A stretch of 63,777 nucleotides of DNA from Verrucomicrobiota bacterium (GCA_049510745.1 JBEKYR010000029.1:1-63777); one strand, 5' to 3'; positions 43,626 through 59,698 are shown, counted from the first letter of the stretch. The notes: generated from the letters alone by a model not told the origin. Numbers and translations are program-made.

Positions 43626-46010
43626 ATGCCAAGTGTGGACCTCAAATTTGTCGAGGAAGCGGTGGAGCGGATCGGGCGCAAACCCACGGCGCTGATCCCG
43701 ATCCTGCAGGCGCTGCAGGAACATCATGGCTACCTGCCCAGGGAGGCGTTGGAGCGCCTCGGCGAGCTGACCGAGATTCGCCCCTCCGCCATCTCAGGTG
43801 TTTCGACCTTCTACGACATGTTCCGCCACAAGCCGGCGGGCAAACACATTATCCGGGTCTGCCGCGGCACGGCCTGTCATGTGGCGGGAGCGGACCGGGT
43901 GGAGGAGGCGTTGCGGCGGCATTTGCGCATTCCGCCGGGCGCCGACACGGACGCGGCGCAGGAGTTCACCATCGAACGGGTCGCCTGCCTGGGTTGTTGC
44001 ACGCTCGCGCCGGTGGTGAAGATGGGCGACTCGACGATGGGATTCGCGTTCGCGGAAAAATCTCCGGACCAGGTGCGCGAGTATCTCACCCGGCAGACAG
44101 AGGCGGCAGGCGTGGAGTCCACCGAAGAAATGGAGCCTGCGGCCGGCAATGGCTTCGCGCAAATCCACGTTGGCCTCGGTTCCTGCTGCATGGCCAAAGG
44201 CAGCGCCCAGTTATTTCACGCGTTGCGCGAGAGCGCCGGCCAATGCGGCGGCCAGGTGGCCATCAAGCGGGTGGGTTGCATGGGAATGTGCCATCGCACG
44301 CCGATGATTGAAGTGGCGCTGCCGGGCCAGGCGGCCGCGTATTATTCGAACCTGACGCCCGGCCAGGCCGATGCCCTCATGCAACGGCATTTTCGTCCGC
44401 GCGGTTTTCTGCGCCGCGCGGGCCGGCTCTGGACACGGCTGCTGGACGGCCTGCTGCTGGAGGAGGCCGCGCCGCAACAACAGGTGGAGCGTTTCTCCAT
44501 GAGCAAACGCGATCCCGGTGTCCGCGCCTTCCTCGAAAACCAGGTGCATATCGCGACCGAACATTTCGGCAAACTCGATCCGCTGGACCTGGACGAATAC
44601 CTCGCCCATGAAGGCTTCGCCGCGCTCCGGCGGTGCCTGGAAACGCCGGCGCCGAAAACCAACGGCGCCCTTTCTCCGGAACAACTCATCGCCACCCTCG
44701 AACAATCCGGCTTGCGCGGACGCGGCGGGGCGGGATTTCCCAGCGGACAAAAATGGCGCGCCGTCCGGCAGCAGCCGGGCGATGTCAAGTATGCGATCTG
44801 CAACGGCGACGAGGGCGACCCGGGCGCGTTCATGGATCGCATGATTCTGGAATCGTTTCCGTTCCGCGTCATCGAGGGACTGGCGCTGGCGGCGGTGGCC
44901 GTGGGCGCGCACGAGGGCATTTTTTATGTCCGCCACGAATATCCGCTGGCGGTCAGGCGGGTGCGGGCGGCGATTGCGGAAATGGAAAAGCGCGGCTGGC
45001 TGGGGGCGACCTTGCTGGGCGCCGGCTTTCCCTTGCGACTGAGCGTGGTCGAGGGGGCCGGGGCGTTTGTGTGCGGCGAAGAGACCGCGCTGATCGCCTC
45101 GGTGGAAGGCCGGCGCGGGATGCCGCGGCTGCGGCCGCCCTTCCCCGCCGAGTCGGGCCTGTGGGGCAAACCGACGCTGATCAACAACGTGGAAACGCTG
45201 GCGTTGGCGCCGTGGATCGTCCGGCATGGGGCGGCGCGGTTCGCGGCCCTCGGCACGGTCAAAAGCAAAGGCACCAAGGTGTTCGCCCTGGCCGGAAAAA
45301 TTCGCCGCGGCGGGTTGATCGAAGTCCCGATGGGGACGAGTCTGCGCGCCATCGTCGAAGAGATCGGTGGCGGCGCGGCGGAAGGCCGGCGGATCAAGGC
45401 GGTGCAGATTGGCGGGCCGTCCGGCGGCTGCGTGCCCGCCAGCCTGATGGACACGCCGGTCGATTACGAATCGCTGCGCGAGGCCGGCGCGATCATGGGT
45501 TCGGGCGGGATGGTGGTGCTGGACGACACGTCGTGCATGGTCGATATCGCGCGGTATTTTCTCCAGTTCACCCAGGACCAGTCGTGCGGCAAATGCACGT
45601 TCTGCCGGGTCGGGACCAAGAGGATGCTGGATATTCTGGACAAGCTGTGCGCGGGCAAGGCGCAACGCGGGCACCTGGAGGAACTCGAAGTGCTGGCGCG
45701 CCAGGTCAGCGCCGGCAGCCTGTGCGGCCTGGGGAAAACGGCCCCCAATCCGGTGCTCTCGACCTTGCGCTACTTCCGCGGTGAATACGAGGCGCACCTG
45801 CAAGGCCGCTGCCCGGCGGGCCGGTGCGCCGCTCTTGTCAAGTATCGCGTCACCGCCGCCTGCACCGGCTGCACCCTGTGCGCCCAGCATTGCCCGGTCC
45901 ACGCCATCCCGATGGCGCCCTACGCGAAACACGAGATCGACCTGGAGGTTTGCACCCGGTGCGACACCTGCCGCAAGGTCTGCCCGGAAAACGCCATCGA
46001 GGCCGCATGA
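43626..46010 (+). CDS. NuoE-NuoF (HydC-HydB/BfuC-BfuB-like) fusion, FMN/NADH-binding Fe-S protein
   Basis: CRGTAC/CLGCC 2Fe-2S; second 2Fe-2S SCC..CMGMC; SGLRGRGGAGFP, NGDEGDPGAFMDR, GAGAFVCGEETAL, GGPSG, SCGKCTFC, two C-terminal 4Fe-4S motifs. Confidence 0.9.
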   Translation: MPSVDLKFVEEAVERIGRKPTALIPILQALQEHHGYLPREALERLGELTEIRPSAISGVSTFYDMFRHKPAGKHIIRVCRGTACHVAGADRVEEALRRHLRIPPGADTDAAQEFTIERVACLGCCTLAPVVKMGDSTMGFAFAEKSPDQVREYLTRQTEAAGVESTEEMEPAAGNGFAQIHVGLGSCCMAKGSAQLFHALRESAGQCGGQVAIKRVGCMGMCHRTPMIEVALPGQAAAYYSNLTPGQADALMQRHFRPRGFLRRAGRLWTRLLDGLLLEEAAPQQQVERFSMSKRDPGVRAFLENQVHIATEHFGKLDPLDLDEYLAHEGFAALRRCLETPAPKTNGALSPEQLIATLEQSGLRGRGGAGFPSGQKWRAVRQQPGDVKYAICNGDEGDPGAFMDRMILESFPFRVIEGLALAAVAVGAHEGIFYVRHEYPLAVRRVRAAIAEMEKRGWLGATLLGAGFPLRLSVVEGAGAFVCGEETALIASVEGRRGMPRLRPPFPAESGLWGKPTLINNVETLALAPWIVRHGAARFAALGTVKSKGTKVFALAGKIRRGGLIEVPMGTSLRAIVEEIGGGAAEGRRIKAVQIGGPSGGCVPASLMDTPVDYESLREAGAIMGSGGMVVLDDTSCMVDIARYFLQFTQDQSCGKCTFCRVGTKRMLDILDKLCAGKAQRGHLEELEVLARQVSAGSLCGLGKTAPNPVLSTLRYFRGEYEAHLQGRCPAGRCAALVKYRVTAACTGCTLCAQHCPVHAIPMAPYAKHEIDLEVCTRCDTCRKVCPENAIEAA

Positions 46011-47602
46011 GCGCGTTTACCATTAGTATTGATGGAAGGCAGGCGGAGGTTTTCCCGGGCCAGACGGTTTTGCAGGCCGCGCGGCAGATCGGCCTGGACA
46101 TTCCCACCCTTTGCCATCTGGAAAAGTGCGGGCCTCTGACCTCCTGCCAGGTTTGCCTGGTCAAGGTGGTGGCCAACGGCCAGAGCCGTTTGGTTCCGTC
46201 GTGCGCCACCCAGGCCGTGCCCGGCATGGTCATCGAAAGCGAAACCGAGGAAGTCCACGAGGCGCGGCGCACGGCGCTCGAATTGCTTTTCAGCGACCAC
46301 GTGGGTGATTGTCTTTCGCCGTGCCAGCGCCTCTGCCCGCTGCAACTGAACATTCCCGCGATGCTGCGGCAGATCGGGGCGGGCCGCCTGGACGAGGCGA
46401 TTACCACCATGCGCCAGGCGCTGCCGTTGGCGGGAGTGCTGGGCCGCCTTTGCCATCATCCTTGCGAACAAGGCTGCCGCCGCGGCGTTTTCGATGAACC
46501 GGCGGCGATCCGCGAGATGGAGCGGTTCTTGACAGAGCACGAACTCAAGCAGGAATCCCGGCAGGCCAGGGCGTGGCTGTCCGAACCCGCCGCCGTCGGC
46601 AAGCAGTCCGTGGTAATCGTTGGGGCCGGGCCGGCCGGGCTGGCGGCGGCGCATGACCTGGCGCGGCGCCGCCACGCCGTCACGGTCATTGACCGCCGCG
46701 CCAAGCCGGGCGGGAGGCTGCGCGACGTGCCGGAAGGCGAGTTGCCCGCCGCCGTGCTCGAGGCGGAAGTCGCGTTGCTGGCGGGGATGGGAATTGATTT
46801 CAAAACCGGCATCGAGTTGGGGACTCAAGTGACTTTGGACGGTTTGCAGCGCGGGTTCGACGCCATCCTGCTCGCCGTCGGCGAATTGGCCGAAGGCGAC
46901 GGCGGGAGACTTGGGGCGCCGCCGGCCGCCGCCGTGCTCAAGGCCGACCCGGCCACCTGCCGCGTCAGTCCGCCCAACGTTTTTGCCGCCGGCGCCTGCG
47001 TCAAGCCTGTCAAGCAAGTTGTCCGGGCCATGGCCGAGGGCCGGGCGGCGGCCGAGTGCGTGGACCGCTATTTGCGCGGCGAGCCGCCGCGTCGGCCCGG
47101 GAAACCGTTCTCCAGCGTCATGGGCCGATTGGAGCCGGGCGAACTGCGGGAATTCCTGCGCAACGCGAGCCAGGAGCACAGCGTGGCGCCGTGCGCCCGT
47201 TGCGCCGGGATCGACCGCGGCGAGGCGGTCCGGGAGGCGTCGCGCTGCCTGCATTGCGACTGCCGGTCGTCGGGCAATTGCGTGCTGCAGCACTACGCCC
47301 AAGTCTATGGCGCCGACGCCAACCGATTCCGGTCGGAGCGCCGGCCCTTCGAGCAGCAACTCCAGCCCGGCGGCGTCATTTTCGAGCCGGGCAAGTGCAT
47401 TTTGTGCGGGATTTGCGTGAAGCTGACGGAAATGGCGGCCGAACCGCTGGGCCTGACATTTATCGGGCGCGGCTTCGACGTGCGGTTGGCGGCGCCGTTC
47501 GACCGCCCGATCGAGGAGGGCTTGCGGGCGGTGGCGGAAGAATGCGTGCGGCACTGCCCGACGGGCGCGCTGGCGTTTGCCGATAAGGTTGCCGGCGCCT
47601 GA
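46007..47602 (+). CDS. NuoG/HydA-like 2Fe-2S + GltD/NfnB-like FAD domain + 4Fe-4S protein (StnC/BfuA-like)
   Basis: IPTLC..SCQVC..SC; DCLSPCQRLCP..LCHHPCEQGCRR; VGAGPAGL; RCLHCDC; KCILCGICV..CPTGAL; ATGA overlap. Confidence 0.82.
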   Translation: MSAFTISIDGRQAEVFPGQTVLQAARQIGLDIPTLCHLEKCGPLTSCQVCLVKVVANGQSRLVPSCATQAVPGMVIESETEEVHEARRTALELLFSDHVGDCLSPCQRLCPLQLNIPAMLRQIGAGRLDEAITTMRQALPLAGVLGRLCHHPCEQGCRRGVFDEPAAIREMERFLTEHELKQESRQARAWLSEPAAVGKQSVVIVGAGPAGLAAAHDLARRRHAVTVIDRRAKPGGRLRDVPEGELPAAVLEAEVALLAGMGIDFKTGIELGTQVTLDGLQRGFDAILLAVGELAEGDGGRLGAPPAAAVLKADPATCRVSPPNVFAAGACVKPVKQVVRAMAEGRAAAECVDRYLRGEPPRRPGKPFSSVMGRLEPGELREFLRNASQEHSVAPCARCAGIDRGEAVREASRCLHCDCRSSGNCVLQHYAQVYGADANRFRSERRPFEQQLQPGGVIFEPGKCILCGICVKLTEMAAEPLGLTFIGRGFDVRLAAPFDRPIEEGLRAVAEECVRHCPTGALAFADKVAGA

Positions 47603-47772: not shown

Positions 47773-50766
47773 ATGCCGAAGGTCGCCAGCTTTGAGTCAT
47801 TCGAGATGGAACTGTCCCGTCTGGTCGGCATCTTCGAACGCAGTCTGGCCGAGCTTAAAAGTTCCGGCTACGTGGAAGCGCAACTGCGCGACGATTTCCT
47901 CAATCCCTTCTTCCGCTCGCTCGGCTGGGATTTGGAGAATAGCGCGGGGCTGGTTCAAACCAAGCGGGAAGTCGAGATCGAGAGCCGCACCGAAATTGGC
48001 GGGCGGCAAAAGCGCGCCGATTATCTTTTTCGCACCGATGGTCATGATCGGTTTGTTTGCGAGGCCAAGAAACCTGCCGAGGAGCTTCACTCACGCTACG
48101 CCTTCCAGGCCAAACGCTATGCTTGGAATAAGAATCTGCCACTCGCCGTCCTGACCGATTTTGAGGAATTCAAAATCTACATCGTCGGCGGCAAGCCGCA
48201 CATGGATGAGCCGCTCGTCGGCCTTTGGAAAAGCTGGCACTTCCGGGAACTCCCGCTCGTTGCGCGGGAAATTTGGGACTTGCTCGCCCGCGACAAGATC
48301 GCCGCTGGCAGCATCGAACAGTTGCTTGAATCCCTGCCCAAAACCCCGCCGGGCAAAGGCAAGGCGCGCCAGCAATGGCTCATCAAGCCCGACCGTTCCC
48401 GCTCGCTCGACGTGGACTTTCTCAACTTTCTCGATGAAGCTCGCCGCGACCTCGCCTCCGACCTTATCCGCCACAACGACCGGGAGGACTTGCTTGAAGG
48501 CAGCCAGCTCAACGAAGCCGTCCAGCATATCCTCGACCGCATTCTTTTTCTCCGCATCTGCGAAGACCGCGACATTGATACTGGAGTCCTCCTTGTTTCC
48601 ATTGTCGAAACGTGGCGGCGGAACGGTGGGAAGCAAGAAGGGGTGCGTGCGCATCAAAAACCTCTTGAACTCCGCGAAGAGCCGCCCGCCGACTACGGTT
48701 ACAGCGGCATTCGCGCGCCCAAAGGATCCCTCTGGCGCGGCATCGTCCGGCACTTCCGCGCGCTTGACCGCCGCCCGCCATCGCACGTTCCCTATTTCAA
48801 CGGCAATCTTTTCAAGCCGCATTTCAGTGAGGAATTGATTGTCAGCGATGAATGGCTCGCCGGGTTTGTCGCGGATTTGAGCGACGATGAATCGCCTTAC
48901 CTCTTCAGCTACATTCCGGTCGAAATCCTCGGCACGATTTACGAGCGGTTTCTCGGCAAGATCGTCCGCCCGCAAGGACGCGGTGTGACCATCGAGGAGA
49001 AGCCGGAAGTCCGCAAAGCCGGCGGGGTTTATTACACCCCGCGCTACATCGTCGAATATATCGTGGCGCAGACGGTTGAGAAACTTCTGCATGACGCCAA
49101 GCCGGAAGCCACATTAAAACTCCACTTCCTGGATCCCGCCTGCGGTTCGGGCAGCTTTCTCCTGCGCGTGTTCGAGGTCGTATGTGAACACTGGGAGCAA
49201 TGGCTCATCGACCGGCCCGATGAACGCAAAAGGAAATGGTGCTGGGTGGATGAAAAGACCGGCAACGTTCACCTGACCATGGCGCTCAAGCGGCGGATTC
49301 TCACCAGCAACGTCTTTGGCGTGGACCTTGACCCCAGCGCGGTGGAAGTGACGCAACTCTCGCTCTACCTCAAAATGCTGGAGAATGAGAACCGCAATAC
49401 CCTCCAGCGCCAGCGCGAGCTCCTGCCCGAAGACGACGACCCGCTCCTGCCGCCGCTGGAAAACAACATCAAACGCGGCAACTCCCTGATCGCCTCCGAC
49501 TTCTCGGTGATCCCCGAAGACCTCGTGCGCGTTCACGCCTTCGATTGGAACGTCGGTTTCAAGGACATCATGAAAGCCGGCGGCTTCGATGCAGTCGTGG
49601 GCAATCCGCCTTACGGACGTCTGCTCGACGAATCAGGGGAAGAATATGCAGCAAATCATTTTTCAGGCTGTCGAGGGATTCCTGATGTTTATGTGGCTTT
49701 CATTGAAAGGGCGATTGGGATCATAAAAGTAAAAGGACGAATGTCCTTCATAGTTCCATCGGCTTGGCTCGGAGGCCCTGCTTACCGTTTTTTGCGCGAG
49801 CGTTTGCTTGAGTTTCAAGTTGAAGAAGTCATCGCGTTGCCGTTCGACGTTTTCGCGGACGCCTACATTGACACCGCAACGCTTGTTCTCAGCAAACAAT
49901 CAACCGATTCCAATGCGGTTGTCCGATGCTTTGCATACGCTAAGAAAGCAAAGCTGGAATCCATTAAATTAGCTAAAAGCCAATACAGCATCATTCCTCT
50001 CTCAGTCTGGAAAAACTCACCTGATCGGAAGTTTGTTTTGTCAGTAGGGGTTGCGAACTTGGTTGCACGTTTGTTAAAAGCATCAAAGACCCGCATTTCG
50101 GATTTTGTTGAGATGAAGCGCGGAGTGTTGTTTGACCAAAGCCTTTTGAAACCGAACAAAGCGAATAGAAATTCGCACCCCTATTTTGAAGGTGACGTTT
50201 ACCGCTACGACTTAAACTACGTTGCCCCAAGTTGGGTCGAATATGGCCCGAAGATGCGCGAATGGCCCAAGGAGTTTCGATGGTTTGAAGGAAAGCGTTT
50301 GTTGATGAGGCGTCTGGTGAATCGCCAACAACGTCTGATGACCGCTTCTGCCGAAGACACCTTCATTACGAACAAAAACCTTTATTCTCTTCTTGTCCGC
50401 AAGGACTCGGATTTGGAGGACGCTGGTATTGGTTTTATGCTTGGGGTTTTGAATAGCCGGCTGCTTTCACGCCTGTACCTGAGTCAAGTGCAGCAAGCAA
50501 CCAAGGATGATTTTCCCCAAGTAACCATTGCAGATGTGCTTGCGTTGCCTTGCCCGCGTCCTACGAGCAGCCAGCTTGTGAAGATTTCAGAACTCGCCAA
50601 AAAATATTCGGCGCTGATGCCCAAGCTGCGACAGGCGCGAAGCGAGTCGGAGCGGCAGACATTACAGAACGCCGTCACCGCCGCTGACCAGCAAATCGAC
50701 GCGCTGGTCTATGACCTTTACGGCCTGACCGAAAAAGAAATCAAACTGGTGGAAGACAACACATGA
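47773..50766 (+). CDS. Type IIG (Eco57I-like) restriction-modification enzyme
   Basis: HsdR_N-like nuclease RADY..CEAKK, GVYYTPRYIV, LDPACGSGSFL, VVGNPPY, TaqI-like C-terminal LGVLNSRL. Confidence 0.9.
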   Translation: MPKVASFESFEMELSRLVGIFERSLAELKSSGYVEAQLRDDFLNPFFRSLGWDLENSAGLVQTKREVEIESRTEIGGRQKRADYLFRTDGHDRFVCEAKKPAEELHSRYAFQAKRYAWNKNLPLAVLTDFEEFKIYIVGGKPHMDEPLVGLWKSWHFRELPLVAREIWDLLARDKIAAGSIEQLLESLPKTPPGKGKARQQWLIKPDRSRSLDVDFLNFLDEARRDLASDLIRHNDREDLLEGSQLNEAVQHILDRILFLRICEDRDIDTGVLLVSIVETWRRNGGKQEGVRAHQKPLELREEPPADYGYSGIRAPKGSLWRGIVRHFRALDRRPPSHVPYFNGNLFKPHFSEELIVSDEWLAGFVADLSDDESPYLFSYIPVEILGTIYERFLGKIVRPQGRGVTIEEKPEVRKAGGVYYTPRYIVEYIVAQTVEKLLHDAKPEATLKLHFLDPACGSGSFLLRVFEVVCEHWEQWLIDRPDERKRKWCWVDEKTGNVHLTMALKRRILTSNVFGVDLDPSAVEVTQLSLYLKMLENENRNTLQRQRELLPEDDDPLLPPLENNIKRGNSLIASDFSVIPEDLVRVHAFDWNVGFKDIMKAGGFDAVVGNPPYGRLLDESGEEYAANHFSGCRGIPDVYVAFIERAIGIIKVKGRMSFIVPSAWLGGPAYRFLRERLLEFQVEEVIALPFDVFADAYIDTATLVLSKQSTDSNAVVRCFAYAKKAKLESIKLAKSQYSIIPLSVWKNSPDRKFVLSVGVANLVARLLKASKTRISDFVEMKRGVLFDQSLLKPNKANRNSHPYFEGDVYRYDLNYVAPSWVEYGPKMREWPKEFRWFEGKRLLMRRLVNRQQRLMTASAEDTFITNKNLYSLLVRKDSDLEDAGIGFMLGVLNSRLLSRLYLSQVQQATKDDFPQVTIADVLALPCPRPTSSQLVKISELAKKYSALMPKLRQARSESERQTLQNAVTAADQQIDALVYDLYGLTEKEIKLVEDNT

Positions 50767-51395
50767 AAGCCAATCATCCTGTGGCGGCGGTCTATGACCA
50801 CCGAGGCCGGCGCTCACAGAGCGCTGCTACAACCAAGGCAGGGAGGGCGCGCGGCGACGCTGCCGCCATTCTCGCCGAGTTCCGACCCGGCCTGGAACGG
50901 GACACGCAACTCATGCCGTGGCTTATCGCCGAAACCGTTTGCGACGAGGTTTCGCAATTTCTCGGTCTCGACCTCCCCGCCCGCTACGCGGTTTGGCTGG
51001 AGGCGAAGGCGGAGCTTTGTTACTCGGGTCGCCGGCATTTCCACAAACTCATGCGCGGGCGCGGCAACGCCCCGCGCGATTGGCTTTACGTTTTCATGCG
51101 CCACTGGCTGGCGAGTATCCTGCACCTGGAGCGGCCGGATTTGTGCCGGTGCCTGCCCATGAGTTTCGTTTACGGCCAGCGCCTTCCGCACGGCACCCAT
51201 CCGCCCATCAACCGGGTTGGCTGCCGGCCGGATTTTCTCCCAGCGCCCCGCGGTTGGGAACCGTCGCGGGTGACGCGGCATCACCGCTGGGCATGGCTGG
51301 CGCGAATCGGAACGGCGGACCTTGCAGAACGCCGTCACCGCCGCCAACCAGCAAATCGACACGCTAAAAGCCGGGGTTTTCTTCTTTGGGTTTGA
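50763..51395 (+). CDS. Hypothetical protein (ends uncertain)
   Basis: Central part RDWLYVFMRHWLAS looks protein-like; N-terminus overlaps a REP pair and C-terminus overlaps an RM duplicate. Confidence 0.4.
   Translation: MKANHPVAAVYDHRGRRSQSAATTKAGRARGDAAAILAEFRPGLERDTQLMPWLIAETVCDEVSQFLGLDLPARYAVWLEAKAELCYSGRRHFHKLMRGRGNAPRDWLYVFMRHWLASILHLERPDLCRCLPMSFVYGQRLPHGTHPPINRVGCRPDFLPAPRGWEPSRVTRHHRWAWLARIGTADLAERRHRRQPANRHAKSRGFLLWV
50780..50831. repeat. REP-like palindromic pair
   Basis: tgtggcggcggtctatgaccaccg / ccggcgctcacagagcgctgctaca. Confidence 0.6.
51301..51366 (+). repeat. Diverged duplicate of type IIG RM gene 3' segment (50641-50706)
   Basis: Translates RESERRTLQNAVTAANQQIDTL vs SESERQTLQNAVTAADQQIDAL, offset 660 nt. 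Confidence 0.85.
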
Positions 51396-52752
51396 GGCTG
51401 ATGAGGTAGGCGACCAGGTTGTCCACCTCGGCATCCTTGATGGTGCCCGCCCAGGCCGGCATGTAGAGGGGCGGCGGCGGGCGTTTGGGGTCGAGGGCCG
51501 GGATTTCGTGCTGGCCCTTGAGGATGCGCGCTTTCAATTCGGCGACGGTGTAGCCGTCGGCGACGCGGAGCAGGCCGGGCACTTGCTCGGCAGTCTTGGA
51601 GTTGGGGTTGGGAACACCGCCTGTGGCGCCGGGACCGTGACAGCCGGCGCACCCGTATTTGCGGAAAACCTCTTTGCCGCGCTCGGCGGGGCTCATCAGG
51701 GAGGGAAGGCTCAGGGCGACGGCCTGTTCCCGCATGTGAATGAGAAAATCGGTCAGGGCGCGGGCCTCGGCTTCGGTGAAGCCAAACTTTGGCATGACGG
51801 AGCCAGGGGTGACGCTTTGCGGATCGCGGAAATGTTGAATCATCCACTCGGGAGCGCGGCGGAGGCCGACGTCGTCCAGGGGCGGTCCAACTTTGCCGCC
51901 GTTGCCGTTGACGGAGTGGCAGCCGATGCAGCCTCTGGATTGGAACAAGCGCAGCCCTTCGCGGGTGTTGGGAAGGACTTTCATCGAGGAGTAGTAGCCG
52001 GAGGCCGCTTCGCCCGTCTGGCTGAGCATGAAGAGCACGATGGCTTCGAGATTGGTCTCCGAGAATTTTTGCGGCGGCATGACGGAGCCGGGGGTGGCGC
52101 TGGCGGGGGCGATGAAATGTTTCTTGAGCCATTCCGGGGAACGGCGCGCGCCCACCTTGTCGAGTTCCGGCCCGATGATGCCGCCGCTGCCGCCGAGTTT
52201 GTGGCAGCCGCGGCAGCCGCTGTTCTCGAAGACCTGCTCGCCCAGGGCCAATTCCGGGGCGGCGGGATTGTCGGCCGGTTCGTGGCATTGGCCGCAGGAG
52301 GCCTGGATGTATTGCATGGGGAGCATCGGCTCGTCCCAGTAGGGCACGTTGCCGTGCGCCTCGACGGTGGTGGTGGCGCGGCCCTGGCCGCGATGGCAGA
52401 TGGTGCAGCCGAAACGCTCGAAGGGGTGTTGCTCGTGCAGGGGATGGTAGCTCAGAGGCTGGGGGTAGCCGCCGTAGCTGGGGTCTTCCACGGTCAGATG
52501 GCAGGTGGTGCAGCGGTCCACGCGGTGGAGGTCGGGCAGGACGGTCTGGCGGATTTCCACAGGAATGCGTTGGGCCAGCAGGCGCTGCTGGGGCGTGGCG
52601 GCGCGGTGGATTTCCTCCTGGATATATTTGCGCTGGTAATCCTTCCACTCGCGGTATTCGTCGCGGTAATAGCCGACGATGACCAAGACGCCGACCAGCA
52701 GGCCGAGGGCGGTGAACCAGCCGTAGAACTTGCGCACAGAAAGCTCCGTCAC
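51364..52752 (-). CDS. Membrane-anchored hexaheme cytochrome c
   Basis: Six CxxCH: CTTCH, CTICH, CGQCH, CRGCH, CIGCH, CAGCH; N-terminal TM. Confidence 0.9.
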   Translation of the reverse strand: MTELSVRKFYGWFTALGLLVGVLVIVGYYRDEYREWKDYQRKYIQEEIHRAATPQQRLLAQRIPVEIRQTVLPDLHRVDRCTTCHLTVEDPSYGGYPQPLSYHPLHEQHPFERFGCTICHRGQGRATTTVEAHGNVPYWDEPMLPMQYIQASCGQCHEPADNPAAPELALGEQVFENSGCRGCHKLGGSGGIIGPELDKVGARRSPEWLKKHFIAPASATPGSVMPPQKFSETNLEAIVLFMLSQTGEAASGYYSSMKVLPNTREGLRLFQSRGCIGCHSVNGNGGKVGPPLDDVGLRRAPEWMIQHFRDPQSVTPGSVMPKFGFTEAEARALTDFLIHMREQAVALSLPSLMSPAERGKEVFRKYGCAGCHGPGATGGVPNPNSKTAEQVPGLLRVADGYTVAELKARILKGQHEIPALDPKRPPPPLYMPAWAGTIKDAEVDNLVAYLISLKPKEENPGF

Positions 52753-52753
52753 C

Positions 52754-54040
52754 TCATTGCCCCTCCGTCACGGCGGGTGGATTTTTCCACGGTTCCACCC
52801 ATGACCAGTTGGGACCGCGGAAGAAGCTGCCGATAACCGTCAGGACCACGGCAATGGCAAGGCAAACGGAGAAGATGGTATTGGCGACGACGCGTTCGCG
52901 GGCAAACCAACGGCCCACGCCCTGGCGTTTGCGGTCGATGTAGGGCAGGAGGGCTAGGGCGGTGACGAGCAAGCCCGGCACGACCACGCCGCCCCAAAAA
53001 GCCGAGTAGCTGACCAATTCCTGGAGGCCGAGAAAATACCAGGGGGCCTTGGCGGGGTTGGGCGGATGGACGGCGTTGGCGATTTCTTCCAGCGGCGCGT
53101 TCCAGAATATGGCCAGGAACAACACCACCGCCGTGACCAGCAGGAACAGGAGCAGCTCGCGGAAAACCAGGTGCGGCCAGGAGAACACCTCGTCTTCGGG
53201 GTCCCGGCCGACTTGCGGCGTTGTGCCGCGGGCCAATTCCATGAGGCCGTAGCTTTTATTGGTGGGCAACTGGCCCAGCTCAACGTTCTGCACGATTTCT
53301 GCCGGTTCATCGGGGCGGGAGAGACCGCCGTCTTTGCGCACGCGGAAAAGGTGGACCGAGATCATGAGCACGGCCAGCGCCGGCAGAACGATCACATGCA
53401 GCGCGTAAAACCGGGTCAGCGCATCCTGCCCGACGATGTGGCCGCCGAGCATGAGGTATTTGAGCTTTTCGCCGACGACGGGCGCATAGCCGGCGATGCT
53501 CGTGCCGACGGTGATGGCCCAGAAGGCCAGTTGGTCCCACGGCAGGAGATAGCCGGTGAAACTCAAGCCGAGAGTGACGAGAAACAGGCCAACGCCGAGA
53601 ACCCAGTTGAACTCGCGCGGGCTTTTGTAAGCGCCGGTGTAAAACACGCGGCATAAATGCAGCATGACGAACAAGACCATCAAGTGCGCCGCCCAGCGGT
53701 GCATGTTGCGGATGACCAGTCCGGCCGAGACGACGAACTGCAGATCCTTCATGATGTCATAGGCCTTGTCCGTGCTGGGGACGTAATAGAACATGAGGAG
53801 CACGCCGGTGGCGCAGAGGATGAGGAACAAATAAAGGGAGATCAGTCCCAGGCCGAGAGAGTAGGAGGCGCGCAGGGCATGGCGATGGACCTTGGCCGGT
53901 TGGACGTGGAGGAGGAAACTGGAAACCATCGCCTGCGACCGCTCGAGATTGCTGGCCGGCAGACCGACGCGAAAGACGGAGCGACCGACCCTCGTGCGGG
54001 TGAACCAAAGCCAGAGGCGTTTGGGCAAAGGGCCGTTCAT
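52754..54040 (-). CDS. Cytochrome b (b6 + subunit IV fused) of a Rieske/cyt b complex
   Basis: [55 protein letters not shown]. Confidence 0.93.
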
Positions 54041-54507
54041 ATCACCAGGTATTTGTCCTCCGCCACGCGCTGGCCTTTGTCCACCAGCAGCCGGTTGTCC
54101 TTGCTCAAAGTGACGGAGAACCACTCCAACGGGCGCGGAGCGGGGCCGCCTTTGACCAGGCCCTGGTCGTCAAACACGCTGCCATGACAGGGGCAATGAT
54201 AGCCTTTGCCGACACGGTTGACCGTGCAGCCAAGGTGGGTGCAGATGGCGGACAGGCAGCGGAACGTGTTGCCATTGCGCACGACAAAAACGCGCTCCGC
54301 ATCCAGGAACGTCACCGAACCGTCCAGGTAATCGTCCGGTTTGCCGGCCTTGAATCGCTGGTCCGGCTCGAAGAGGACGTTCGGCACCAGAAACCGCACG
54401 GTGCCCGCGGCGGAGGCCGTCACGGCGAAGACGGCCGCCAGCCAACCGAGGGTGAGTTGGAAAAAACCGCGTCGTGAAGTTTCGTTGCCGGGAGTAGAAG
54501 GGATCAT
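54037..54507 (-). CDS. Rieske 2Fe-2S protein
   Basis: Tat [27 protein letters not shown]. Confidence 0.95.
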
Positions 54508-54508
54508 A

Positions 54509-56431
54509 TCAAGCGGGGATGAGTTCGAGCCGTTCCATGGTGATGGCGCCGGTGGGGCAGCGAACGGCGCACAGGCCGCAGCGGATGCAACGGGTCTCGT
54601 CTTTGATGATCGCGCCCTGCTCGCCGCGCTCCGGCACGCGCCCGTAACGGGCCAGGAAGGCGCTCTGCAACTTGGCGTCGCCCCGCAGGCTGGCGGCATC
54701 GACCAGGCGCAGGCAGTATTCGGGACAGACATCGGCACACCCCCCGCAGAGGATGCATTCATCGCCGTTAAACACCGGGCCGACATGGCACTTGAGACAG
54801 CGGTCGGCCTGCCGGCGGGCGTCTGGCTCGGGGTAATCTTTCTCCACTTCGGCAATGCCGATGCGCCGGTCCAGCGGCAGGGTCGGAGGCGGACGGCGGA
54901 TGAACTTCTCGTAATCAGGCTTCATGCCGTACTGGAGAGTATTGTAGATCGTCACGCGCGCCTGGCGCGGCTCGGCCGGAACGGAGCCTGTGAGGAATTT
55001 CGCGATGGAAGCGGCGGCTTTTTTGCCCTCGGCGACTGCGGTGATGATGATGCGCGGCCCGAAGGCCACGTCGCCGCCCGCGAACACATCGGGCCGCGAA
55101 GTGGCCATCGTTGCCGGATCGGTTTGCAATGTTCCGCGAGGGGTGATCTTCAAATTGTCTTCCGGGCGAATCCAGGAAAGGTCCGCCGACTGGCCGATGG
55201 CCAGGACGACCGTGTCGCAATCCACCGTCTCTTCGCTGCCTTCGATGAATTGGGGGTTGAAGCGGCGGTTTTCGTCGAAGACGCGGCTGGCTCTGATCAG
55301 TTCGATGCCGGTTACTTTGTCATCGCGGCCGAGAATGCGTTTGGGGCCAAAACGGGTGTGGAGCCGGATGCCTTCCTTTTCCGCCTCTTCAATTTCCTCG
55401 TGGGCGCTGGGGATTTCGTCCAGGCTCTCCAGGCAGTACATGTGGACTTCGGGCACGCCTTTGCGGATGGCTTCGCGGGCGACATCCAACGCCAGACGCA
55501 CTTCGTCCGGGGCTTCCGGTTGGCGGGCGGTCAACTGCTCCAGAGCCGAGGCGGCTTGGTGCAGGGCCTCGCGCAATTCCGCCTCGCCCATCCCGGCAAA
55601 TTTCTCCGCCTGGCGGACGACCGAGCGGGCCACGTCGAAAGCGACGTTGCCGCCGCCGATGACGACGACCTTACGGCCGAGCGAGACGCGGAAACCGAGG
55701 TTGACATTGAGCAGAAACTCAATGGCCCGCAGCACTCCGTCCAATTGCACGCCTTCAATGCTCAATTCGCGGCTTTTGTGCGCGCCGATGCCCAGAAAGA
55801 CCGCTTCGTAGCCCTGCTTCTTAAGGTCGGAAAAGGCGAAGTCCTTGCCGAGGCGGGTGTTGAGGCGGACCTCGACGCCCAGCGCCTCGATGGCGGCGAT
55901 TTCCGCCCGGATGATCTCGCGTGGAAGCCGGTATTCAGGCACGCCGAGCACCAACATGCCGCCGGCCAGGTTTTGCGCCTCGAAGACGGTCGGGGAAAAC
56001 CCCATCAAGGCTAGTTCGTGCGCGCACGACAGGCCGGCCGGACCGGCGCCGATGATGGCAACCTTGCGTCCGCCGCCGATGCGTTCGCGGCGCGGATCGC
56101 GCAGTTGGGGATAGACGCGGCCGGGATCGAAGTTGTCGGATTCGACGCCGAACTTTTCGCAGACGAACCGTTTCAAGGCGCGGATGGAAACGGGGGCGTC
56201 CAGCGCCCCGCGGCGGCATTTGGCCTCGCAGGGGGCGGCGCAAACGCGGCCGCAGATGGAGGCGAAAGGGTTGGGCGTCCGGGCCAGGATGTAAGCGTCC
56301 TCGTAACGACCCTCGGCGATGGCCTGGACGTAGCCGCCGGAGTCGGTGCGCACCGGACAACCCTCGCGGCACAAGACCTGCCGCGTGAAATAATTCACGT
56401 CCGGCACTTCGACTGGATAGGTCGGGGGCAT
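54509..56431 (-). CDS. GltD/NfnB/DsrL-like FAD Fe-S NAD(P)H oxidoreductase with C-terminal ferredoxin
   Basis: CREGCP..ICGRVCAAPCEAKCRR, IGAGPAGL, IGGGNVAFD, FAGGD, CILCGGCADVCP, CIRCGLCAVRCP. Confidence 0.9.
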   Translation of the reverse strand: MPPTYPVEVPDVNYFTRQVLCREGCPVRTDSGGYVQAIAEGRYEDAYILARTPNPFASICGRVCAAPCEAKCRRGALDAPVSIRALKRFVCEKFGVESDNFDPGRVYPQLRDPRRERIGGGRKVAIIGAGPAGLSCAHELALMGFSPTVFEAQNLAGGMLVLGVPEYRLPREIIRAEIAAIEALGVEVRLNTRLGKDFAFSDLKKQGYEAVFLGIGAHKSRELSIEGVQLDGVLRAIEFLLNVNLGFRVSLGRKVVVIGGGNVAFDVARSVVRQAEKFAGMGEAELREALHQAASALEQLTARQPEAPDEVRLALDVAREAIRKGVPEVHMYCLESLDEIPSAHEEIEEAEKEGIRLHTRFGPKRILGRDDKVTGIELIRASRVFDENRRFNPQFIEGSEETVDCDTVVLAIGQSADLSWIRPEDNLKITPRGTLQTDPATMATSRPDVFAGGDVAFGPRIIITAVAEGKKAAASIAKFLTGSVPAEPRQARVTIYNTLQYGMKPDYEKFIRRPPPTLPLDRRIGIAEVEKDYPEPDARRQADRCLKCHVGPVFNGDECILCGGCADVCPEYCLRLVDAASLRGDAKLQSAFLARYGRVPERGEQGAIIKDETRCIRCGLCAVRCPTGAITMERLELIPA

Positions 56432-56449
56432 GGCCGTGCGGTCGGCGAA

Positions 56450-56944
56450 TTATTTCGCGTCGTACTTGTCGTGGAGTTCCTTGATCTTGGTCTCGGCGGC
56501 CGCTTTTTCCGCGGGGGTGGCCTTGGCGAGTTTGTCGTCCACCATCGTCTTCTTGCGGAGGCTGGCGTCATAGACCAGGAACTCATAGATTTTCTTGCCG
56601 TCGGCCGCGCTGATGTTGGAACCGGGCTTATACATCATGCGCTTGATGTAACGGGACCATTCGTCGGGGAGGGCGTAGTCGGAGTTGATCGGGCGGCTCA
56701 ACTTGTGGCATTGGGAGCATTTATGGCTGAAGAGTTCGTAGTTGTCCTGGATGACTTGGGGGTATTTGGACACATCGACGGTCGCCGGCCCTTTCTCGAA
56801 CCGTTCGACGCGCGCCTTGGTTTCAGCATCCATTTCCTGCGCGGTGGCGCGGCCCAGGCCCGCTCCGGTCACGCCGAGCACAGCCGCGCCAACGAGGACG
56901 GCGGCAAGTCTGATCGTCATTTTCATAAGTGTCATTTCTTTCAT
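56450..56944 (-). CDS. Periplasmic monoheme cytochrome c
   Basis: Signal peptide, CSQCH, WSRYIKRMMYKPGS; start uncertain. Confidence 0.8.
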   Translation of the reverse strand: MKEMTLMKMTIRLAAVLVGAAVLGVTGAGLGRATAQEMDAETKARVERFEKGPATVDVSKYPQVIQDNYELFSHKCSQCHKLSRPINSDYALPDEWSRYIKRMMYKPGSNISAADGKKIYEFLVYDASLRKKTMVDDKLAKATPAEKAAAETKIKELHDKYDAK

Positions 56945-58303
56945 TTAGAACCCGTAGGAGAGCTGGAGGACAAACGAATTGGGAGCCAGGGCGGTGGGGC
57001 CGTGGCTCTGCAACCATTCGTAGTCACCCTCAAAGAGCAGCGTGTTGGAAAAGTAATAGACGCAGCCCGCCGTGTAGCGATCTGTTTTTGTGGGTCCCGC
57101 TCCGCCGCCGAAAAGGCCGTCGTCATTTACACGATCATAGCGGCCGACCAACTCGACATTGTTAATGTAGGGCAGCTCCAGATTCAGGCCGGCCAGTTTG
57201 TAGCTCGCTTGAATCCACCATCCATCCGGACGAACCGGTCCGACATCATCGGTTCCCACCCAGGTTTGAATGTCCTCGCCCTTCACTTCGATGTTCGGGC
57301 CTAAGTGCAGGGCCGCATCCACCACGGCAGCCGACCACTGGCGGTTGCCCGAGTCGCTCCAGGCGCCCGTCTGGCCTGAAAGACCCAGTTCGAAATCATA
57401 GTGAGGTTTCGCTGGGCAAGGGAGAAACAGAGCCAGGCGGCCGCCGCCGCTGGGCTTGGCGTGCCAATTGGGGGTATTGCCGACATTGCCGGCCAGGTCC
57501 AACGCGCCGGCGGCGGCAATCGAGTTGGTGGCGCCGGAGGACGGTCCGTTGACCCCGTAAACGGCATAGGTGACCGACATCCCGGACTCTCCGACCGGGA
57601 CGGCCCCGCGCAACTGCGCGCCCACGCCGCTGCCCGGCAAAAGCGTATCACGCACCAACGGGTTATCCGGAATTTTGTTGAGCCATCCAGCGCCCCGTTC
57701 GCTGTAGGTGCCCAGCGGCAATAACATGTCCCCGGCCACAAGCGTCATGTAGTCGTTCAGAAGATAATCCAACTGTCCGAAGCTCATGCTTACCGAGGTC
57801 GAACTGCCCGGAGCGCGGTTGCCGTTCACGTCCGTGTTATTGCCCAGCATGACGTCGAAACCCGCCTCGAACAGCACGTCGTCGCTGGCGCGAAAGAGGA
57901 AAATCGGGGCGAAATCAGCCAGGGCGAAGGTGGCGTGCTGGCCAGCGGTTTTTCCATATTGAGCCTCGGCATCGCCCACCATCGAGAAGTTGTGCAGCGG
58001 CCCCTGGGAGGCGCTGACAACCGGATAGGTCGATTGCACCTTGGCCACGCTCTCGGCGGTCTGTTGCGCGTTGGTGGCGGCGGTTTTGGTTTCTCCCAAC
58101 TGCTTTTGCAGTTGCTGGATGAGTTGCTGGTCCTGCGCGTGGGTCTGTTCGAGACTCTGGACTTTGTCGCCCAATTGTTCGACTACTTTCTTCAAGGCGT
58201 TGAAGTCGTCGGCGCTTACTTGCGCCGATGCCGCCTGGGGCAAAGCGGCCCCCGTCACGCAGGCGGCGGCCAAAGCTCCAAAAATCAGGGAAGGAATTTT
58301 CAT
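56945..58303 (-). CDS. Outer-membrane beta-barrel porin with N-terminal coiled coil
   Basis: Signal peptide, coiled coil, alternating beta strands, C-terminal VLQLSYGF. Confidence 0.8.
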   Translation of the reverse strand: MKIPSLIFGALAAACVTGAALPQAASAQVSADDFNALKKVVEQLGDKVQSLEQTHAQDQQLIQQLQKQLGETKTAATNAQQTAESVAKVQSTYPVVSASQGPLHNFSMVGDAEAQYGKTAGQHATFALADFAPIFLFRASDDVLFEAGFDVMLGNNTDVNGNRAPGSSTSVSMSFGQLDYLLNDYMTLVAGDMLLPLGTYSERGAGWLNKIPDNPLVRDTLLPGSGVGAQLRGAVPVGESGMSVTYAVYGVNGPSSGATNSIAAAGALDLAGNVGNTPNWHAKPSGGGRLALFLPCPAKPHYDFELGLSGQTGAWSDSGNRQWSAAVVDAALHLGPNIEVKGEDIQTWVGTDDVGPVRPDGWWIQASYKLAGLNLELPYINNVELVGRYDRVNDDGLFGGGAGPTKTDRYTAGCVYYFSNTLLFEGDYEWLQSHGPTALAPNSFVLQLSYGF

Positions 58304-58322
58304 AGGTGGGATTCTCGGTGTT

Positions 58323-58682
58323 TCAGTTTCCGCTGTCTTCCTGGAGATATTTGAGAATCTCCCTGGCCTGCGCCGCGGGAAGATTGGCCCGCACTCGCAT
58401 GTGCGTCACGATCGTCTTCCACTGGGCCGGCGTAAACTCGGTCGGATACCGTTCCGCGTGGCACCGATTACAGTTGATTTGATACAACTGGGCGCCGGTC
58501 AGCTTCTTTTTCTCCGCCTTTTTGGCCGGCTTGGCGTCTCCGCCTTGAGCGGCTGGAGCATTAGAGTCACCCGCGGCAACCAAAGCGATGGACGCCGCGA
58601 AAACGAGCGAGGCCAGCAGTGGGAGGAGAATCCCCGGCCGCCGTCCTGGCTTGGCTGAACTGAGTTGATTCATCATTTTCAT
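58323..58682 (-). CDS. Small monoheme cytochrome c
   Basis: Signal peptide, GAQLYQINCNRCH, WKTIVTHMRVRANL. Confidence 0.82.
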   Translation of the reverse strand: MKMMNQLSSAKPGRRPGILLPLLASLVFAASIALVAAGDSNAPAAQGGDAKPAKKAEKKKLTGAQLYQINCNRCHAERYPTEFTPAQWKTIVTHMRVRANLPAAQAREILKYLQEDSGN

Positions 58683-58807
58683 CGGGTCAAATCTGTAACA
58701 GGAAGGCGGGCGAGCGGCTACTTGCCCCTTGGCATTTACTGCTTGCCGATTGCGCAGGCGGGGAAGAATCGAAACCGAACAAGCCCTCAGAAGCGCCTGG
58801 GGCGGAG

Positions 58808-59698
58808 TCAGATCGGCACGGTGGATTGCAGCGTGGCCCGATACTCTGTCGGCGGCATGCCAACGCATCGTTTGAACACGCTGTTGAACCGCGGGATGGA
58901 GCCGAACCCGGCGGCAAAGACAACCTCCGAGATGCGCACCGACGGATCCACCAACAGCGTCTTGGCCTTTTCCACACGGACGCGGGCGACATACTCAGTC
59001 AGGGTCATGCCGGTGGCTTTCTTGAACATCTTGCAAAAATGGAAGCGGCTGACATTGACGTGTTGCGCCACCAGCGGCAGCGTGATCCTCTCCTCGGAGT
59101 GGGACAGAACAAATTGCTTGGCGCTGGAGACCGGCTTAGGCTCATTGGCGGAGGCGGAAATCGCGTGGCGGCTGGCGTAGTCGGCCAGATACTGGGCAAA
59201 GACGTTGAGCAAATGCACCATGGCCTGAAAGCGGTCGGGCGGAACGACCGGCGTGTCGAAATAGGCCTTGCGCGCCTTCTTTTCCCAATCCGGGTTCGGC
59301 TCGACCTTGAGCATCTGGACCACCATCTGGAAATCGCGCTCGGTGGGTGGGCGGCGAAAAATTTGTCCGCTCATCAACGTCGCCACATGCCGGCCATTGA
59401 CGACCACCGGCACGGCGATATCCGTCAGGCCGGCAAAGCAGGAGACTTGCTGCGGAACGAGTCTCTTGCCGGCGCCTCTTTGGGCGCGTCTTTCGGATTC
59501 CAAACAGGCATCGCAACCGGCCGGAGCACGGGTGACGAGGGAGCAGAAGGCGTTTTCGAATTCGCCAAAGCTCAGGCGCTGGCCGGACTCGGCCGGCGGG
59601 ACGACTTTGAGCGACATCCCCGTCACTTTGCGGAACGCCGTCTCGTAATACTGGATTACGGGCAAGCGGACCAAGTCATCGAACGCAATTTGATTCAT
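58808..59698 (-). CDS. PocR-sensor AraC family regulator
   Basis: NAFC..C..CFAGLTDIAVPV..GQ PocR domain; FCKMFKKATG, GFGSIPRFNSVFK..P.EYR. Confidence 0.9.
   Translation of the reverse strand: MNQIAFDDLVRLPVIQYYETAFRKVTGMSLKVVPPAESGQRLSFGEFENAFCSLVTRAPAGCDACLESERRAQRGAGKRLVPQQVSCFAGLTDIAVPVVVNGRHVATLMSGQIFRRPPTERDFQMVVQMLKVEPNPDWEKKARKAYFDTPVVPPDRFQAMVHLLNVFAQYLADYASRHAISASANEPKPVSSAKQFVLSHSEERITLPLVAQHVNVSRFHFCKMFKKATGMTLTEYVARVRVEKAKTLLVDPSVRISEVVFAAGFGSIPRFNSVFKRCVGMPPTEYRATLQSTVPI

Follow-up and report, generated by a model that had tools for sequence, protein, structure and literature searches.

What does a bacterium do with an operon that joins an outer-membrane porin and small c-type cytochromes to a Rieske/cytochrome b complex and a cytoplasmic flavoprotein? 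The question is raised by a 63,777-nucleotide stretch from a Verrucomicrobiota bacterium (GCA_049510745.1 JBEKYR010000029.1:1-63777), the whole of which is called the window here; coordinates are counted on the whole stretch. An earlier note on this DNA had described eight genes on the minus strand in 51364..59698, and all eight reading frames were present in the order claimed: a regulator, a monoheme cytochrome (cytochrome A), a porin, a second monoheme cytochrome (cytochrome B), a flavoprotein, a Rieske protein, cytochrome b, and a hexaheme cytochrome. Our main finding is that cytochrome A is predicted to plug the periplasmic mouth of the porin, which would give the layout of the Fe(II)-oxidizing protein Cyc2 from two genes.

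The porin had no Pfam match above cut-off, and its sequence profile gave weak OprO matches only (E 0.011). A single-sequence fold reached a predicted local distance difference test score (pLDDT) of 38; the fold used here was modeled from an alignment of 117 sequences (pLDDT 79). The closest fold to this model was OprP (2o4v; Z 26.9, root mean square deviation 3.0, 300 residues aligned), and Foldseek also returned OprP/OprO. By a strand-parity estimate, lumen-side positions hold 16 Asp/Glu versus 7 Lys/Arg, and the predicted channel is thus acidic, not arginine-rich. Modeling the porin together with cytochrome A, a check that the earlier note had proposed, gave a complex score of 0.89, compared with 0.01 for the best of three controls. 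Solved complexes reached this level in 116 of 157 cases and mismatched pairs in 2 of 215, counts that are roughly valid for the alignments used here, with the heme riding along. The runs agreed in at least 94% of contacts, and the partner pLDDT was at least 84. Among the strand contact residues, 25 of 28 face the lumen, and the other contacts are at periplasmic turns and an in-folded loop, so that cytochrome A would be seated in the periplasmic mouth of the barrel. Sequence searches returned no solved complex of this kind and no solved relative of cytochrome A. In the model, a single heme set back behind 16 strands is suited to small solutes and not to minerals or bulk humics, and metal ions in solution outside the cell would be the pair's likely electron partners.

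Cyc2 (10.1101/228056; PMC13741234) has in common with the predicted pair a 16-strand OprO/OprP-like barrel, one c-type heme predicted as a periplasmic plug, and a substrate that enters the pore; Keffer et al. (10.1101/228056) predict that its heme domain lies in the periplasmic mouth. The pair differs in being encoded by two genes rather than one, in its coiled-coil stalk, in a heme domain that resembles the C-terminal part of TorC and has a conserved Met, and in having no detectable barrel homology to Cyc2 (hhalign at most 1%). A split descendant of Cyc2 was rejected on these grounds: the barrel scored 0.2, 1.0, and 0.8% by hhalign against three Cyc2-type families, and cytochrome A matched them at the CXXCH level only. 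A loosened pattern for the Cyc2 motif AXPXFAR[Q/K][T/Y], which precedes CXXCH in that protein, had no match among the open reading frames of the host genome.

The porin family comprises 558 clusters at 50% identity (E up to 1e-30). In 16 of its best 150 representatives, the stalk is preceded by a fused second heme domain of class I. No cytochrome A-porin fusion was present in these 150, nor, as weak evidence, in the best 120 of 748 longer cytochrome A relatives. In a more distant branch a class I cytochrome precedes the porin (the two are fused in 3 of 16 loci), and cytochrome A often has a lipoprotein-like signal, as judged by eye. Cytochrome A itself lies within 900 nucleotides of the porin in 61 of the 62 loci scoring at least 150 bits (two of these are duplicates, and the single miss lies at a contig end) and in one of seven weaker loci; its best NCBIfam matches, the TorC C-terminal part and SorB, were below cut-off. 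Cytochrome B and the C-terminal domain of the hexaheme cytochrome occur together in 32 loci; 3 loci, all at contig ends, have only cytochrome B, 6 have only the domain (4 of these are truncated), and 89 have neither. Cytochrome B is also retained in operon versions that have a Cyc2-type gene. From this gene pattern, cytochrome B is likely a shuttle between the last domain of the hexaheme and the outer-membrane heme. In locus L125, a diheme cytochrome combines a c552-like domain with a counterpart of the last domain of the hexaheme.

The genes and the regulatory site are listed in Table 1. From cytochrome A to the hexaheme cytochrome the intergenic gaps are 19, 0, 18, 1, -4, and 1 nucleotides, a spacing typical of one putative operon, and the regulator is separated from cytochrome A by 125 nucleotides. 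The same order of all seven genes is seen again in other Verrucomicrobiota genomes, and one Thermoanaerobaculia genome has the set with porin and cytochrome A in exchanged positions; because it recurs, the gene order is not chance. The conservation of the porin, the small cytochromes, and the flavoprotein with the bc genes, which the earlier note had left to a synteny survey, was thus borne out. Codon use in the operon resembles that of the genome, and scans for sigma-70 promoters and terminators gave chance-level results only.

Table 1. Features of the locus, listed from the regulator to the hexaheme cytochrome (coordinates on the whole window).
Feature	Position	Strand	Character or basis
PocR-sensor AraC-family regulator, 296 residues	58808..59698	-	PF10114 (E 5e-27) and HTH_18; in 16 related loci mapped
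Conserved direct repeat, period 21 nucleotides; candidate operator	58718..58755	-	Aligned upstream regions; 36 nucleotides before cytochrome A start
Cytochrome A, exported monoheme c, 119 residues	58323..58682	-	One CXXCH; invariant Met95 (likely His/Met); basic, core isoelectric point 9.7
Outer-membrane porin	56945..58303	-	Signal peptide, coiled-coil stalk (about residues 31-91), predicted 16-strand OprP/OprO-like barrel, acidic lumen
Cytochrome B, periplasmic monoheme c	56450..56944	-	One CXXCH; distant homologue of cytochrome A (hhalign 84%)
Cytoplasmic GltD/NfnB-type flavin adenine dinucleotide (FAD) protein	54509..56431	-	Best NCBIfam PRK12771, 444 bits vs cut-off 516; no signal or membrane segment
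Rieske protein, twin-arginine-like N-terminus	54037..54507	-	Ser kept, Phe for Tyr, as in Kustd1480
Cytochrome b, 428 residues, b6-type part fused to subunit IV in one chain	52754..54040	-	Alignment, motifs
Hexaheme cytochrome c, one N-terminal membrane anchor	51364..52752	-	6 CXXCH; three-heme N-terminal part and three class I monoheme domains

We next consider the redox core. The top two PDB matches of the Rieske protein are Kuenenia 9rk4 (E 8.5e-23) and 9rk3 (3.8e-20), with the next at 1.3e-13, in agreement with the anammox likeness claimed earlier. By its Ser/Phe residues, which match those of Kustd1480, the protein would be of the high-potential type; the Kustd1480 Rieske was measured at +335 mV (PMC12954380). 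Cytochrome b was aligned with 84 sequences of 370-530 residues (85 rows in all, one being a distant PEWY paralogue from L099). The heme ligands H114, H128, H215, and H230 are invariant, and the quinol-oxidation motif APWY (residues 332-335) is present in 84 of 85 rows. As judged by these sequences, the core (flavoprotein, Rieske, cytochrome b, and hexaheme) belongs to the known APWY Rieske/cytochrome b clade. Cys130 (window about 53650), two residues past His128, is kept in 64 of 85 rows and is Ser in Chlamydiota.

The heme cN cysteine is absent from all 85 rows: position 63, aligned to b6 Cys35, is Gly in 76 (including this protein), Tyr in 7, and Ala in 2. Arg235 sits at the position of b6 Arg207, and there is no bc1-type quinone-binding His. 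According to PMC12954380, quinone leakage at heme cN is the largest problem for quinol-driven reduction of nicotinamide adenine dinucleotide or its phosphate (NAD(P)); loss of the cysteine together with Arg235 would remove quinone reduction on the cytoplasmic side, which that paper gives as the main obstacle. An extra histidine, H45, is invariant in 85 of 85 rows and may correspond to His43/His62 of Kuenenia, where an interfacial heme b is predicted, and R233/R235/K236 are kept in 83 to 84 rows. His/Asn290, near the former cN pocket, is also conserved. Three hydrophobic segments after the b6 part correspond to subunit IV by hydropathy, not the five helices of the anammox type. The best NCBIfam matches of cytochrome b, ExtP/ExtQ, were below cut-off, and it is the only PF00033 cytochrome b in the host genome.

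The flavoprotein has 16 cysteines in four sets, the ligands for four iron-sulfur clusters, and is present in 78 of 90 core loci, with most misses at contig ends. Its CXXCH-like string at C545/C548 is probably part of an iron-sulfur motif and not a heme site, the protein being cytoplasmic. An Arg-Arg pair marks NADP binding. The position of this pair in NfnA is taken by Glu335 in all 72 full-length relatives; because of this replacement, the flavoprotein likely prefers NAD over NADP, and of the two cofactors left open by the earlier note NAD is the more likely one.

The nearest described systems are the Kuste4569-4574 and Kustd1480-1485 complexes of Kuenenia stuttgartiensis (PMC12954380), in which a Rieske protein, a b6-type cytochrome b, a multiheme cytochrome c, and an FAD/four-iron-sulfur oxidoreductase also lie in one cluster. 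They further provide the closest solved Rieske structures, share the high-potential Rieske residues, and have an extra conserved N-terminal His that may be the counterpart of H45. Unlike the Kuenenia complexes as described there, the operon has b6 and subunit IV fused, three and not five subunit IV helices, no heme cN cysteine, no octaheme protein like hydroxylamine oxidoreductase, an outer-membrane module, and a likely heterotrophic host. Two of these features, the cN cysteine and the helix number, place the predicted complex outside the anammox type; the likeness noted earlier stands, and the membership does not. The APWY clade of PMC4122944 shares the motif, a patchy spread over unrelated phyla, and the lack of biochemical characterization as of that paper. 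It is listed there with CxGG (mostly WCMGG), whereas the branch described here is without the Cys, and the paper's passages on the clade mention neither a flavoprotein nor a porin as partner, and neither Verrucomicrobiota nor Chlamydiota among its members.

Among porin-containing systems, the Geobacter extHIJKLMNOPQS operon (PMC5877670; PMC13510729) likewise combines an OprP-like porin with Rieske, cytochrome b, subunit IV, and c-type cytochromes. The present operon differs in having no rhodanese and no MccSep polysulfide reductase, and the ext gene list in those sources is without a flavoprotein. The porin as an ExtI orthologue was rejected: the ExtI model (NF040900, porin_ExtI) does not match it and gives a weak match only elsewhere in the genome. 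MtrAB/MtoAB, PCC3, and PCC4 (PMC5566968) and the peat clusters EET1-4 (10.64898/2026.05.27.727921) also pair porins with cytochromes in humic and peat bacteria, including Verrucomicrobiota. As described in these sources, they use multiheme wires of 4-13 or more hemes and, where stated, 24-42-strand barrels; here the predicted barrel has 16 strands and each flanking cytochrome one CXXCH. The words Rieske, Cyc2, and monoheme are absent from the main text of the peat preprint, to which its supplements could add.

To see what the core is joined to, we surveyed 10 loci from relatives and, of the at least 590 matches that the genome collection gave, the best 80, a set biased to close relatives. Of these 90 core loci, 17 have the porin and cytochrome A, 12 have a Cyc2-type gene in the same operon slot, 42 have a cbb3 oxidase, and 19, mostly at contig ends, have none of these; no locus combines two of them. 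L032 was classed by hand for its broken porin frame, frames are also broken in L040 and L052, and L041 and L042, which belong to other clades, were excluded. The cbb3-linked loci are from Acidobacteriota (labels including Holophaga and Paludibaculum) and Chlamydiota. Since cbb3 is an unambiguous electron sink, the core can evidently deliver high-potential electrons away from the membrane. Several Chlamydiota loci (L078, L086, L090, L094, L098, and others) have a multiheme subunit of 1,090-1,410 residues with seven hemes ahead of the cbb3 genes. The 13 Cyc2-type proteins fall into three families, 4 with the strict published motif and 9 with a close variant, and no porin of the present family was found in the three Cyc2-type genomes searched (G324, G326, and G327). 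In a quick cytochrome b tree, which has long-branch outgroups, an unreliable root, and no anammox sequence, the cbb3 forms make one branch (47 rows; Shimodaira-Hasegawa-like approximate likelihood ratio test [SH-aLRT] support 91), and Opitutales Cyc2 forms nest inside the porin-bearing clade (SH-aLRT 99).

Within the order, the operon's cytochrome b occurs in 13 of 301 genomes and the porin family in 39. Among the 13, the porin module adjoins the core on the same contig in 8 and is split from it by contig ends in 2 (G041 and G112); in G034 it is replaced by a multiheme neighborhood with an MtrC/MtrF-like 12-heme gene beside the core. Locus L038 (G034:C32) has cysteine-desulfurase-like and methyltransferase genes between Rieske and cytochrome b and an alginate-export-type barrel downstream. 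Twenty-five close porin loci comprise 8 complete bc operons, 2 that reach the flavoprotein at a contig end, 1 that ends after cytochrome B, 1 that leads to an aa3 operon, and 13 in which only a diheme cytochrome with a class I domain follows, with no bc genes. The linkage of porin and bc genes proposed in the earlier note is therefore conserved and not dedicated. Judged by these neighborhoods, the porin-cytochrome A pair is mobile. In G022 (L042, G022:C240) a regulator-cytochrome A-porin-cytochrome B block stands on a PEWY, CxGG cytochrome b, with a Rieske protein without the Ser and no flavoprotein, an arrangement whose simplest reading is a forward Q cycle with an outside exit. L042 also has a membrane monoheme cytochrome resembling the hexaheme's last domain. 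The pair looks rare in the phylum of G324, where a 251-genome sample gave 7 weak porin matches, one of them with cytochrome A. A metagenome scan with a divergent porin gave 6 loci. Outside Verrucomicrobiota, distant porin loci with cytochrome A-type neighbors have a cupredoxin (L174), a MerR regulator (L175), or a multicopper oxidase and CopB (L177) alongside, which suggests a metal-handling role there.

A matrix trained on 16 aligned sites scored 58.3 at the repeat upstream of cytochrome A in the window and 13.3 at the next best site in the 5.6 Mb genome, and it also matched in loci outside the training set (L042, L044, L048, L124, L131, and L132). Two of these, L044 and L048, are Cyc2-type operons in which the regulator directly precedes cytochrome B. 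L043 and L045 have neither regulator nor repeat, and L131 has the repeat with no regulator within the fetched stretch. The repeat is likely the operator of the AraC-family regulator, to which we infer that it binds.

The presumption that the host is a heterotrophic verrucomicrobium was supported: the closest cytochrome b relatives (84-86% identical) are labeled Verrucomicrobiota, and no RuBisCO large subunit was found in the 94% complete host genome. By motifs and local profiles, this genome has alternative complex III (ACIII), aa3 and cbb3 oxidases, and an MtrAB-like multiheme cluster; with these other respiratory enzymes, the operon would be an accessory branch. It also has futalosine-type menaquinone genes (two PF02621 matches), two complex I-like 49-kDa subunits, and PntB, and by its gene content the host makes menaquinone. 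A large multiheme cluster at G000:C2:128000-164900 (11, 9, 9, 7, 6, 4, and 4 hemes) has NrfD/DsrO modules and a 708-residue barrel-like gene beside the 7-heme cytochrome, and it adjoins a complex I-like operon and the genome's only other close PocR-AraC paralogue; genes like these flank the bc core in G034 and G033.

The reading that we favor, with a probability just short of even, is that menaquinol is split, one electron going to NAD+ via the flavoprotein and one outward to an oxidant in solution that has a high potential, for instance soluble Fe(III). The outward electron would pass from Rieske/cytochrome b to the hexaheme, to cytochrome B, to the porin plugged by cytochrome A, and on to the oxidant. 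The other would pass from the low-potential heme b (bL) to the high-potential one (bH), to an additional heme b bound by His45 between the two halves of the dimer, and through the four iron-sulfur clusters and FAD to NAD+, a path that resembles the one modeled for the anammox complexes (PMC12954380). Quinone would not be reduced on the cytoplasmic side, and NADH would re-enter the quinone pool via complex I, recovering the energy of the wide gap between menaquinone and a strong oxidant. The high-potential sink would vary by version: O2 in cbb3 forms, nitrite as proposed in anammox, and a solute reached through the pore here. The G034 core beside an MtrC/MtrF-like gene was counted for this outward reading. 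What had been taken for a straight conduit from the outer membrane to NAD(P) would instead be two arms of a quinol-splitting site, one ending in the porin and the other in the flavoprotein.

Several findings weigh against menaquinol splitting, some by themselves and some by favoring flow in the opposite direction. From textbook potentials, the split yields +120 mV with a +300 mV acceptor and +200 mV with a +380 mV acceptor, before the charge cost; as these energetics are tight and one charge moves against the membrane potential, an oxidant of about +350-400 mV is required, a potential that might be available from Mn(III/IV) or, in acid organic soils, from soluble Fe(III). Glu295 of cytochrome b, which by its position we take to be the likely heme cN ligand, is kept in 82 of 85 rows, so a noncovalent heme at the old cN site is possible. 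The MtrAB-like cluster means that the host already holds a means of export. In addition, lumen residues within the predicted interface show no higher conservation than lumen residues elsewhere (7/25 versus 20/72; P = 0.21), and conservation thus adds no independent support for the plug model. Higher conservation of the interface relative to all other residues (17/45 versus 54/308) was discounted, as it vanished in this lumen-only comparison.

The opposite direction is the best-surviving alternative, which we nonetheless regard as rather unlikely. Here the plugged porin, like Cyc2, would take electrons from a donor in solution, for instance Fe(II), and these would reach terminal oxidases, the hexaheme, or both via cytochrome B; the complex would run backwards, reducing menaquinone with one electron from outside and one from NADH. 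The porin pair occupies the same slot as Cyc2-type genes, and Cyc2 has been shown only to oxidize Fe(II) (10.1101/228056). The acidic lumen and the host's aa3, cbb3, and ACIII would suit this direction as well. In L125 (G192:C11:82500-96000), cytochrome A, porin, cytochrome B, and a diheme lead to an aa3 oxidase operon and there is no bc core; in L043 and L045, aa3 genes lie at most 10 kb downstream. These loci, like the 13 close porin loci in which only a diheme comes next, are consistent with inward flow that ends at an oxidase. PMC4122944 calls APWY characteristic of reverse-running complexes, a proposal drawn from the Geobacter p-cresol cluster, with none characterized. In contrast, in the 42 loci linked to cbb3, electrons have to run forward through this same core. 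Running backwards would also spend NADH and membrane potential and bypass complex I, a net loss by our charge count when an oxidase is available. Finally, no RuBisCO was found, in a search confined to that route of carbon fixation, so there is little evident need for uphill flow.

The flavoprotein could also act as an NADH dehydrogenase and pass electrons to a site that reduces quinone on the cytoplasmic side, in which case the operon would encode the whole chain from NADH to an outside acceptor; we consider this quite improbable. The likely NAD specificity suits catabolic oxidation, Glu295 and His/Asn290 are conserved near the former cN pocket, and an operon with input, coupling site, and exit would be self-sufficient. 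However, cytochrome b has Arg235 in place of a bc1-type quinone-binding His and no heme cN cysteine, and the host's complex I-like enzymes would conserve more energy from NADH, the ground on which PMC12954380 rejects this direction for the anammox complexes. Slightly less probable still is a copper/iron uptake or detoxification unit that shares the regulator and exchanges no respiratory current, as might be suggested by the metal genes beside distant pairs, by how often the pair stands alone (those 13 of 25 loci), and by the solute-porin fold, with Geobacter ExtI discussed as a channel within a Rieske/cytochrome b operon (PMC5877670), but cytochrome B tracks the last hexaheme domain almost perfectly, unrelated heme-barrel proteins repeatedly occupy the same slot, and a plug in the barrel mouth would be predicted to hinder bulk transport.

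Other genes lie downstream of the operon. A plus-strand restriction-modification gene (window 47773-50766; Eco57I/TaqI_C domains), with lower GC content and a weaker codon fit, converges on the operon end. No Pfam family matches the frame at 50763-51395 (+), whose codon score is negative. At 43626-47602 (+), 4 kb from the hexaheme, a separate operon holds NuoE/F-like and GltD-like iron-sulfur flavoprotein genes.

The core is itself of a known kind; what is new is the non-Cyc2 two-gene heme porin in the Cyc2 slot, its controlled assembly model, the clade-wide loss of the cN cysteine, and the candidate operator. In the titles, abstract openings, and passages of the literature covered, there was no description of the porin-monoheme pair or of its link to a flavoprotein-bearing Rieske complex; an earlier mention of the flavoprotein clade outside anammox is possible. 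We suggest, as a tentative proposal that may well prove wrong, that the porin and cytochrome A are undescribed, widespread two-gene outer-membrane metal oxidoreductases, which reached the Cyc2 design independently and go unseen in Cyc2 and multiheme searches, and that here they would form the high-potential exit of a cN-free complex in which NADH is made directly from menaquinol. Heterotrophs of peat and soil could then use dissolved iron to power uphill NAD reduction. The idea that quinol drives NAD(P) reduction in anammox bacteria dates from 2013 and still awaits proof, and the cN-less branch with cbb3 in Acidobacteriota would be a cleaner test of it. Extracellular electron transfer is surveyed by counting Cyc2 and multiheme conduits, and both counts would miss a small porin with a 119-residue cytochrome. 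If the porin pair does exchange electrons with iron, the part that soil and peat heterotrophs play in iron cycling would be undercounted.

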